Assembly: GCF_050920415.1 (NCBI RefSeq)
Contig: NZ_CP169309.1
Length of the DNA stretch: 64,000 nt
Source: Escherichia coli
GTDB taxonomy: Bacteria; Pseudomonadota; Gammaproteobacteria; Enterobacterales; Enterobacteriaceae
Strand: one strand, 5' to 3'
Shown here: positions 48,929-49,114 of the stretch, in pieces
Layout of the letters: every line of letters begins with the position of its first letter
How positions within the stretch are numbered: position 1 is the first letter of the stretch
Translations under genes and position numbers: made by a program
The notes under the pieces: generated by a model
Databases searched by the model: none
Told to the model about the DNA's origin: nothing
The model's input: the letters and a program-made list of their open reading frames with translations, nothing else

Positions 48929-49114
48929 ATGAAGGTGAAAAGGATGTTTATTGCCTGGTACTGGATTGTATTAATTGTTCTACTAGCTGGTGGCTATTTT
49001 CTTCATCTTAAACGTTACTGTAAAGCTTTTCGTCATGACAGAGATGCGCTGTTAGCTGCTCAAAGTAAATTAGATAAACGCTTCGATAAAGACGTATTTG
49101 AAAAGCATCAATAA
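48929..49114 (+). CDS. hypothetical small membrane protein (61 aa, one predicted TM helix)
   Basis: ORF MKVKRMFIAWYWIVLIVLLAGGYFLHLKRYCKAFRHDRDALLAAQSKLDKRFDKDVFEKHQ with SD ggtgaaaaggATG; not recognised by me. Confidence 0.4.
   Translation: MKVKRMFIAWYWIVLIVLLAGGYFLHLKRYCKAFRHDRDALLAAQSKLDKRFDKDVFEKHQ

Follow-up and report, generated by a model that had tools for sequence, protein, structure and literature searches.

Most of the single-transmembrane small proteins that have been characterised in bacteria modulate a larger membrane protein. In E. coli, for example, single-transmembrane modulators of transporters and sensors include AcrZ, which acts on AcrB, MgtS on MgtA and PitA, MntS on MntP, KdpF on KdpABC, and MgrB on PhoQ, and some of the modulator genes sit near the gene for their own transporter. 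Small hydrophobic peptides are also the products of type I toxin genes, such as Hok, Ldr, Ibs and TisB. A further small protein, YqiD, is encoded in K-12 MG1655 (b4756, YP_009518818.1, 'protein YqiD', 56 aa) by a gene convergent with zupT. VanOrsdel et al. (2018) included it among 36 small proteins confirmed in K-12 by a chromosomal SPA tag and immunoblotting (PMC6001520). It was also one of 13 that were positive in tetracycline ribosome profiling of K-12; the authors describe most of the 13 as abundant in LB and give no separate level for YqiD (PMC6001520). In a 2025 preprint yqiD was one of four genes in which cis non-coding variation, promoter prediction and a GFP reporter were concordant (10.1101/2025.06.10.658842), and the 'mutant' promoter primer listed there matches the fimbrial-type upstream sequence of strain NRZ14408. 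Our literature search on yqiD returned no functional study, partner, phenotype or localisation data for the protein.

We analysed a 64,000-nucleotide stretch of E. coli DNA, hereafter the window, in which a first-pass annotation had pointed out an unrecognised 61-aa open reading frame. This frame runs from an ATG at 48929 to a TAA ending at 49114 on the plus strand, and we reproduced its translation. It is, however, already a known feature: it is named, annotated, and its K-12 orthologue is translated. Indeed, a PGAP coding sequence (WP_001354975.1; 171 nt, 56 aa, 'hypothetical protein') in strain MFDS1022581, which is 100% identical to the window across the yqiD region, corresponds to window positions 48944-49114, and WP_001296421.1 occupies the same position in ST131 and other strains. 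We assign yqiD to 48944-49114 on the plus strand, encoding 56 aa plus a stop (MFIAWYWIVLIVLLAGGYFLHLKRYCKAFRHDRDALLAAQSKLDKRFDKDVFEKHQ; the window-type or 'class B' allele), because the first ATG, at 48929, is poorly kept in other strains (ATT with a 1-nt indel stands there in K-12, and TTG in ST131) while the arrangement AAGG(G/T)-N6/7-ATG-TTT is. Both this arrangement and the N-terminal residues MFIAWYW are kept across genera. The start first proposed was thus misplaced by 15 nt, and the Shine-Dalgarno sequence ggtgaaaagg that had been assigned to it precedes the second ATG at 48944 and not the one at 48929. The five in-frame codons in between (MKVKR, 48929-48943, plus strand) are a lineage-specific extension that carries the ribosome-binding site AAGGTG (48932-48937); they are the source of the 61-aa reading and are probably untranslated.

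The window protein aligns with K-12 YqiD over its full length, with 63% identity over 56 aa. Conservation is concentrated at the N-terminus, where 31 of 37 residues are identical, and the C-terminal 19 residues largely differ. The window protein also carries the signature of the YqiD orthologous group, MFIAWYW...KRYC[KR]AFRxDRDALL, and a profile search with the YqiD family returned that family alone. Similarly, the two genes share their setting: each lies convergent with zupT on the ribB side, encodes 56 aa beginning MFIAWYW, is preceded by the same palindrome and ribosome-binding site, and is followed by an equivalent hairpin. They differ in their upstream neighbour, which is a Yqi fimbrial operon in the window and ribB in K-12, and in their naming, since RefSeq labels the window allele 'hypothetical protein' and the K-12 type 'yqiD'. 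We consider it nearly certain (probability of about 0.97) that the feature is yqiD and a real coding gene. Only the K-12 allele has been shown to yield protein; synthesis from the window allele would be expected, given its conserved ribosome-binding site and ATG and the dN/dS values below.

The length of the reading frame is not evidence for a gene, because an ATG-initiated frame of at least 56 aa arose in 348 of 2000 shuffles (17%) of the 805-nt intergenic region. This figure is what speaks for a chance frame in AT-rich DNA, which the first-pass annotation had left standing and whose conservation would then reflect non-coding constraint. The case for the gene rests instead on conservation and on the published detection of the protein. 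In a homologue scan that took one genome per species and yielded 40 loci, the frame was intact, at 51-74 aa, in 40 of 40 species. Mean column identity at codon positions 1, 2 and 3 was 0.93, 0.94 and 0.69, so that variation is biased to third positions, and of the two alternative sense frames one was interrupted by stops in all 45 sequences and the other in 42. For codons 2-38, dN/dS between the window allele and the others was 0.04-0.10 where dS was unsaturated. Within clades, pN/pS over the same codons was 0.05-0.12 in Escherichia and Citrobacter (tail, 0.11-0.41) and 0.24 in Kosakonia (tail, 0.35); pooled over all unique pairs pN/pS was 0.275, with pS at 0.73 and therefore near saturation. 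The frame is no chance product, because dN/dS over codons 2-38 lies at 0.04-0.12, well below 1; with the other frames closed, the ribosome-binding site and ATG conserved, and the protein detected in K-12, we give the chance-frame reading practically no credence. The first-pass annotation had named frame conservation, synonymous-biased substitution, Ribo-seq and epitope tagging as ways to check the frame; the first two are borne out here and the last two by the K-12 orthologue, detected by tetracycline profiling and SPA immunoblot (PMC6001520), so that its suggestion of a genuine gene for a single-transmembrane small protein holds.

Homologue searches found the YqiD family in Enterobacteriaceae only, in at least eight genera. 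The loci belong to Escherichia (coli, albertii, whittamii and unnamed species), many Citrobacter, Salmonella enterica subsp. arizonae and diarizonae, Intestinirhabdus, one Enterobacter, Kosakonia, Phytobacter and Pseudocitrobacter. In the species scan, the genomes representing S. enterica subsp. enterica, Klebsiella and typical Enterobacter gave no hit. Several of the Kosakonia homologues begin with GTG, and in Phytobacter massiliensis (loci L015/L051, 4001-4225) the homologue, of 74 aa, runs 18 nt into the 3′ end of the convergent zupT.

Within E. coli the gene is dimorphic. Among 5426 complete E. coli genomes, 4433 carry the K-12-type region (annotated 'yqiD: protein YqiD'), and a BLAST search with the window spacer matched the window-type region in 994; together these make up essentially all of them. 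The window-type matches were mostly 80-90% identical, with two genomes at 99% or above, and among the matches listed that cover the reading frame the annotation under it was 'hypothetical protein'. In windows of 40 nt, zupT is 95-100% identical between the two types. Identity then falls to 40-57% exactly past the zupT stop codon (49175/49176) and stays there through the hairpin and the yqiD tail, before reaching 68-93% over the leader and the 5′ half of the gene; upstream of the palindrome the types cannot be aligned, homology beginning about 10 nt upstream of it. Between the alleles dS is approximately 2.1 over codons 2-38, comparable to that between Escherichia and Citrobacter. On these sequence comparisons we regard the window allele as anciently diverged, with a boundary at the zupT stop codon. 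Given this dS and the sharp boundary, it seems that the window-type yqiD, as an old and foreign-like segment, either came in or was kept along with the fimbrial island. A chimeric YqiD (P0017), which joins a window-type N-terminus and transmembrane segment to a K-12-type tail, indicates that recombination has also occurred inside the 171-nt gene. The allele divergence with its boundary at the zupT stop, and the conserved palindrome upstream, are what is newly seen here, and both are minor. The dimorphism also exposes an annotation gap: the window-type region finds a match in approximately 18% of the complete E. coli genomes, and the gene is only a 'hypothetical protein' in those that we inspected.

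The surroundings of the gene correspond to those first described. The intergenic spacer of 805 nt is AT-rich, with a GC content of 0.25-0.33 over 48350-49100, and yqiD is divergent from a ygiL-like gene, the fimbrial major subunit at 47807-48370 on the minus strand. This subunit, 61% identical to K-12 YgiL, belongs to a four-gene chaperone-usher operon of the Yqi (ExPEC adhesin I) type that lies upstream of yqiD, at 43402-48370 on the minus strand. The yqi operon primers of an earlier study (PMC2771359) nearly match the start of the first gene of the window operon. The operon is a diverged relative of K-12 ygiL-yqiGHI, with 61% identity in the major subunit and 35% in the adhesin; it lies between ribB and yqiD in the window and between ubiK and glgS in K-12, and the K-12 site is empty in the window, where only about 1.2 kb separates yqiJ from ribB.

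On the other side, zupT (49176-49949, minus strand; WP_001295627.1 by PGAP), encoding a ZIP-family divalent metal importer, is the convergent neighbour, so that the two stop codons of the window lie at 49114 and 49176. Across species zupT is directly downstream of and convergent to yqiD in 38 of 40, the gap ranging from -18 to +74 nt. What lies upstream differs between genomes. For example, ribB lies directly upstream in K-12, several Citrobacter, Kosakonia and Phytobacter, and an assT-dsbL-dsbI cluster is found there in C. rodentium and C. amalonaticus. The ribB-yqiD spacer is thus an insertion hotspot, which in the window, as in B2 E. coli, holds the Yqi fimbrial operon. The assT-dsbL-dsbI cluster also occurs in ST131 and at one further E. 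coli locus (L010), where it lies beyond ygiD, in place of ygiC-ygiB. In a Pseudocitrobacter metagenome-assembled genome and in K. oryziphila, yqiD is intact but has no intact zupT beside it. The bloodstream isolate E. coli FCI23 (L057, NZ_CM172721.1, 768082-771231) has lost, beside an IS1, the usher and major subunit along with the 5′ part of yqiD, and retains only approximately the last 89 nt of yqiD and the hairpin. Because of these two species and the IS1-associated deletion in FCI23, we regard yqiD as dispensable, in at least this one bloodstream isolate, and as not strictly tied to zupT. The linkage is striking without being absolute, and conserved gene order could explain it.

Between the convergent stops of yqiD and zupT lies a stem-loop with a 13-bp stem (49131-49164). 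The 69-nt segment that contains it folds with -27.0 kcal/mol (z -8.2) on the plus strand and -24.7 kcal/mol (z -5.6) on the minus strand, and K-12 has an equivalent 13-bp stem of different sequence. A terminator scan showed no T-run at the hairpin. It is probably a shared or bidirectional terminator, or a stabiliser of the 3′ ends.

Upstream of yqiD, about 112 nt before the start codon, is a perfect 16-bp palindrome, TATGA-TCGAAA-TCATA (48825-48840; TATGATCGAAATCATA), which occurs once in the 64-kb window against an expectation of 0. Its mean column identity is 0.96 over 30 unique sequences from Escherichia, Citrobacter, Salmonella arizonae and diarizonae, and Intestinirhabdus, as compared to 0.55 just upstream of it and 0.69 at third codon positions. 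A transcription factor site is presumed from this conservation, and transcription of yqiD would probably require the factor bound there. The palindrome has the form TGA-N6-TCA, which is the spacing of operators of the CRP/FNR family. The CRP half-site is GTGA and the FNR half-site TTGA. Here the base before TGA is A in both half-sites (ATGA/TCAT), which gives 8 of 10 matches to either consensus, with the discriminating base of neither. Judged by eye against consensus sequences, operators of Fur, Zur, MntR, ArgR, Cra and LacI type were set aside for their spacing; NikR shares the TATGA/TCATA half-sites and was set aside as well, its spacing being 16 bp as compared to 6. Kosakonia and Phytobacter carry a different conserved upstream element, CTACTTATAAAGTGGTA.

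Between the palindrome and the upstream ATG, the putative promoter and 5′ untranslated region of yqiD (48841-48928, plus strand) has a mean column identity of 0.81 across four genera and includes a near-invariant block, ATGTTAAAT, at 48919-48927. Within the larger block AAATGTTTAGTAATGTTAAAT (48909-48927), TGTTTA-N4-TGTTAA forms a direct repeat (near 48909-48924) that by eye resembles a PhoP or ArcA box, a reading set aside because its period is 10 bp and not 11. The same block holds a short palindrome, CTAAATGTTTAG, for which many Citrobacter have TTAAATGTTTAA, the change being symmetric. A promoter consensus scan gave a sole plus-strand match in this region, TCCACA-18-TATATT (48848-48877), that was no better than chance. 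At 48846-48854 the sequence TGATCCACA is one mismatch from the DnaA box TTATCCACA; the window and ST131 alleles have it, K-12 and Citrobacter do not, and this resemblance of TGATCCACA is probably fortuitous.

The first-pass annotation had given the protein one strongly hydrophobic helix and a charged C-terminal tail, and both descriptions are accurate. The best 19-residue Kyte-Doolittle window is FIAWYWIVLIVLLAGGYFL (residues 2-20, mean 2.16), and the tail contains 10 K/R and 6 D/E. We predict a transmembrane segment at residues 2-22, followed by a basic juxtamembrane motif rich in Cys and His and then by a variable charged tail. Five K/R lie in the first 11 residues after the transmembrane segment, five being the median for residues 23-33 across the family. 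Because of the positive-inside rule and these basic residues, the topology would be N-out/C-in; with a transmembrane segment that begins at residue 2, the N-terminus would be periplasmic and there would be no periplasmic domain. An AF2 model built on the family alignment gave one continuous helix over residues 3-55 at a mean pLDDT of 71, in keeping with a bitopic inner-membrane protein bearing a cytoplasmic helix.

Invariant or near-invariant positions are M1, I3, W5, W7, R24, A28, R30, R33 and A35. The constrained core thus comprises the transmembrane helix and the motif [KR]-R-x-C-[KR]-A-[FY]-R-x-[DE]-R-[DE]-A-L, with two to five Cys/His. A Cys lies within residues 18-32 in 47 of 48 unique proteins, and at the membrane-cytoplasm boundary at least two Cys/His are found in 44 and at least three in 36. 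Their positions vary by clade as their number is kept (C20-H21-C26, H20-C26-C29-H31 or H18-C21-C26), and one homologue (P0070) has no Cys or His at all in its juxtamembrane segment. As read from the alignment, this pattern hints at binding of a metal or cofactor, although it proves nothing.

Family searches left YqiD on its own. Pfam-A, searched with the window protein and 18 aligned family members, gave no family and only marginal compositional matches to MerE, DUF2621, DUF4381 and UPF0370, and NCBIfam gave nothing near its cut-offs for the window protein; the families of AcrZ, KdpF, MgtS and MntS did not appear in either scan. The MerE mercury transporter (PF05052/NF010310) was rejected at 13.3 bits against a cut-off of 80, with a Pfam i-Evalue of 0.26 and a match confined to the transmembrane segment. 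One source labels a Citrobacter homologue DUF4051; this was rejected too, as neither the window protein nor the 18 members matched it in the Pfam-A release used, from which the family may have been withdrawn. The uncharacterised enterobacterial small protein YpfN/UPF0370 (PF13980) resembles YqiD in its N-terminal transmembrane segment and charged tail and is matched by 3 of 18 YqiD members (best E 0.028), but these matches are non-significant, arise from transmembrane and charge composition, and lack the signature KRYC[KR]AFRxDRDAL. A PDB profile search returned GapR/UPF0335 for a helix of the form RxxxAxRQ[DE][RE]DA[LI]L at E 0.05, which we treat as chance helical similarity, and it showed no solved complex with a YqiD-like chain.

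YqiD shares with AcrZ, MgtS, MntS, KdpF and MgrB its size class, its single transmembrane helix with a short cytoplasmic segment, and its residence in a core chromosomal gene; it also sits near a transporter gene, zupT, as some of these do near theirs. The likeness is one of functional analogy only, since there is no sequence homology and yqiD is convergent, and so not co-transcribed, with zupT. By this analogy we moderately favour a YqiD that serves some larger membrane protein as its accessory or regulatory subunit. Among the roles offered by the first-pass annotation, that of a small membrane regulator is still the likeliest. It would dock on a larger inner-membrane protein or complex through its transmembrane helix and the conserved juxtamembrane face, and would thereby modulate that partner. 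ZupT is the sole candidate that the gene neighbourhood supplies, and we think it rather unlikely to be the partner. A more specific and slightly less probable version makes YqiD a metal-sensing or metal-handling subunit of ZupT whose Cys and His residues would bind Zn2+ or another divalent ion on the cytoplasmic side and so tune uptake. The convergent zupT of 38 of 40 species and at least eight genera, with every insertion on the other side, agrees with such a role, as does a Cys/His count that is kept while positions shift. Yet the adjacency may reflect nothing but a conserved ribB-zupT order and a tiny intergenic target; many Enterobacteriaceae that bear zupT have no yqiD, yqiD persists in Pseudocitrobacter and K. 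oryziphila although no intact zupT adjoins it, P0070 dispenses with Cys and His, and convergent order offers no co-transcription. The fullest form of the idea, a ZupT subunit or regulator that senses divalent metal, is controlled by a CRP/FNR-family factor, and exists as two alleles differing in expression and in tail function, is accordingly a long shot.

The locus might instead act mainly through RNA, with convergent transcription of yqiD into the hairpin and the zupT 3′ end modulating the zupT mRNA and the peptide being secondary. Stop codons only 9-74 nt apart, or even overlapping as in P. massiliensis, and the strong shared hairpin in Escherichia fit such a role; the hairpin is seemingly missing in some Citrobacter loci with very short gaps. 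However, the protein accumulates in K-12, and we take the protein itself to be selected because dN/dS is 0.04-0.12 with synonymous sites saturated, which makes a mainly RNA-level role very unlikely. Still less probable is a membrane-depolarising peptide of the type I toxin kind, as the first-pass annotation had also suggested. A small protein with a hydrophobic helix at its N-terminus and a charged tail, whose gene lies in AT-rich intergenic DNA beside a horizontally acquired fimbrial island, does recall such toxins, but yqiD is a single-copy, strictly syntenic core gene, present in essentially all E. coli genomes and in several genera, and its product has a long conserved cytoplasmic helix. 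Promoter-like matches on the antisense strand were at chance level, and an Rfam search (E<=1) of both strands of 48200-49300 matched no known family, including any antitoxin RNA or sRNA. Furthermore, YqiD belongs to the ribosome-profiled group that is mostly abundant in LB, its own level not being given (PMC6001520). The toxin suggestion is therefore unsupported, and an accessory subunit of a larger membrane protein remains the reading that we prefer.

As a discovery the locus carries little weight, since the gene was known. The modest additions are the annotation gap described above and two leads for YqiD, namely the near-invariant linkage to zupT and the invariant palindrome with CRP/FNR spacing, which, like the Cys/His motif, have the standing of hypotheses. 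The comparative data make a case for a functional protein that is restricted to Enterobacteriaceae and whose constrained core is a transmembrane helix with a basic juxtamembrane motif bearing Cys and His. We know of no small-protein regulator of a bacterial ZIP transporter. If YqiD does modulate ZupT, it would be, to our knowledge, the first.
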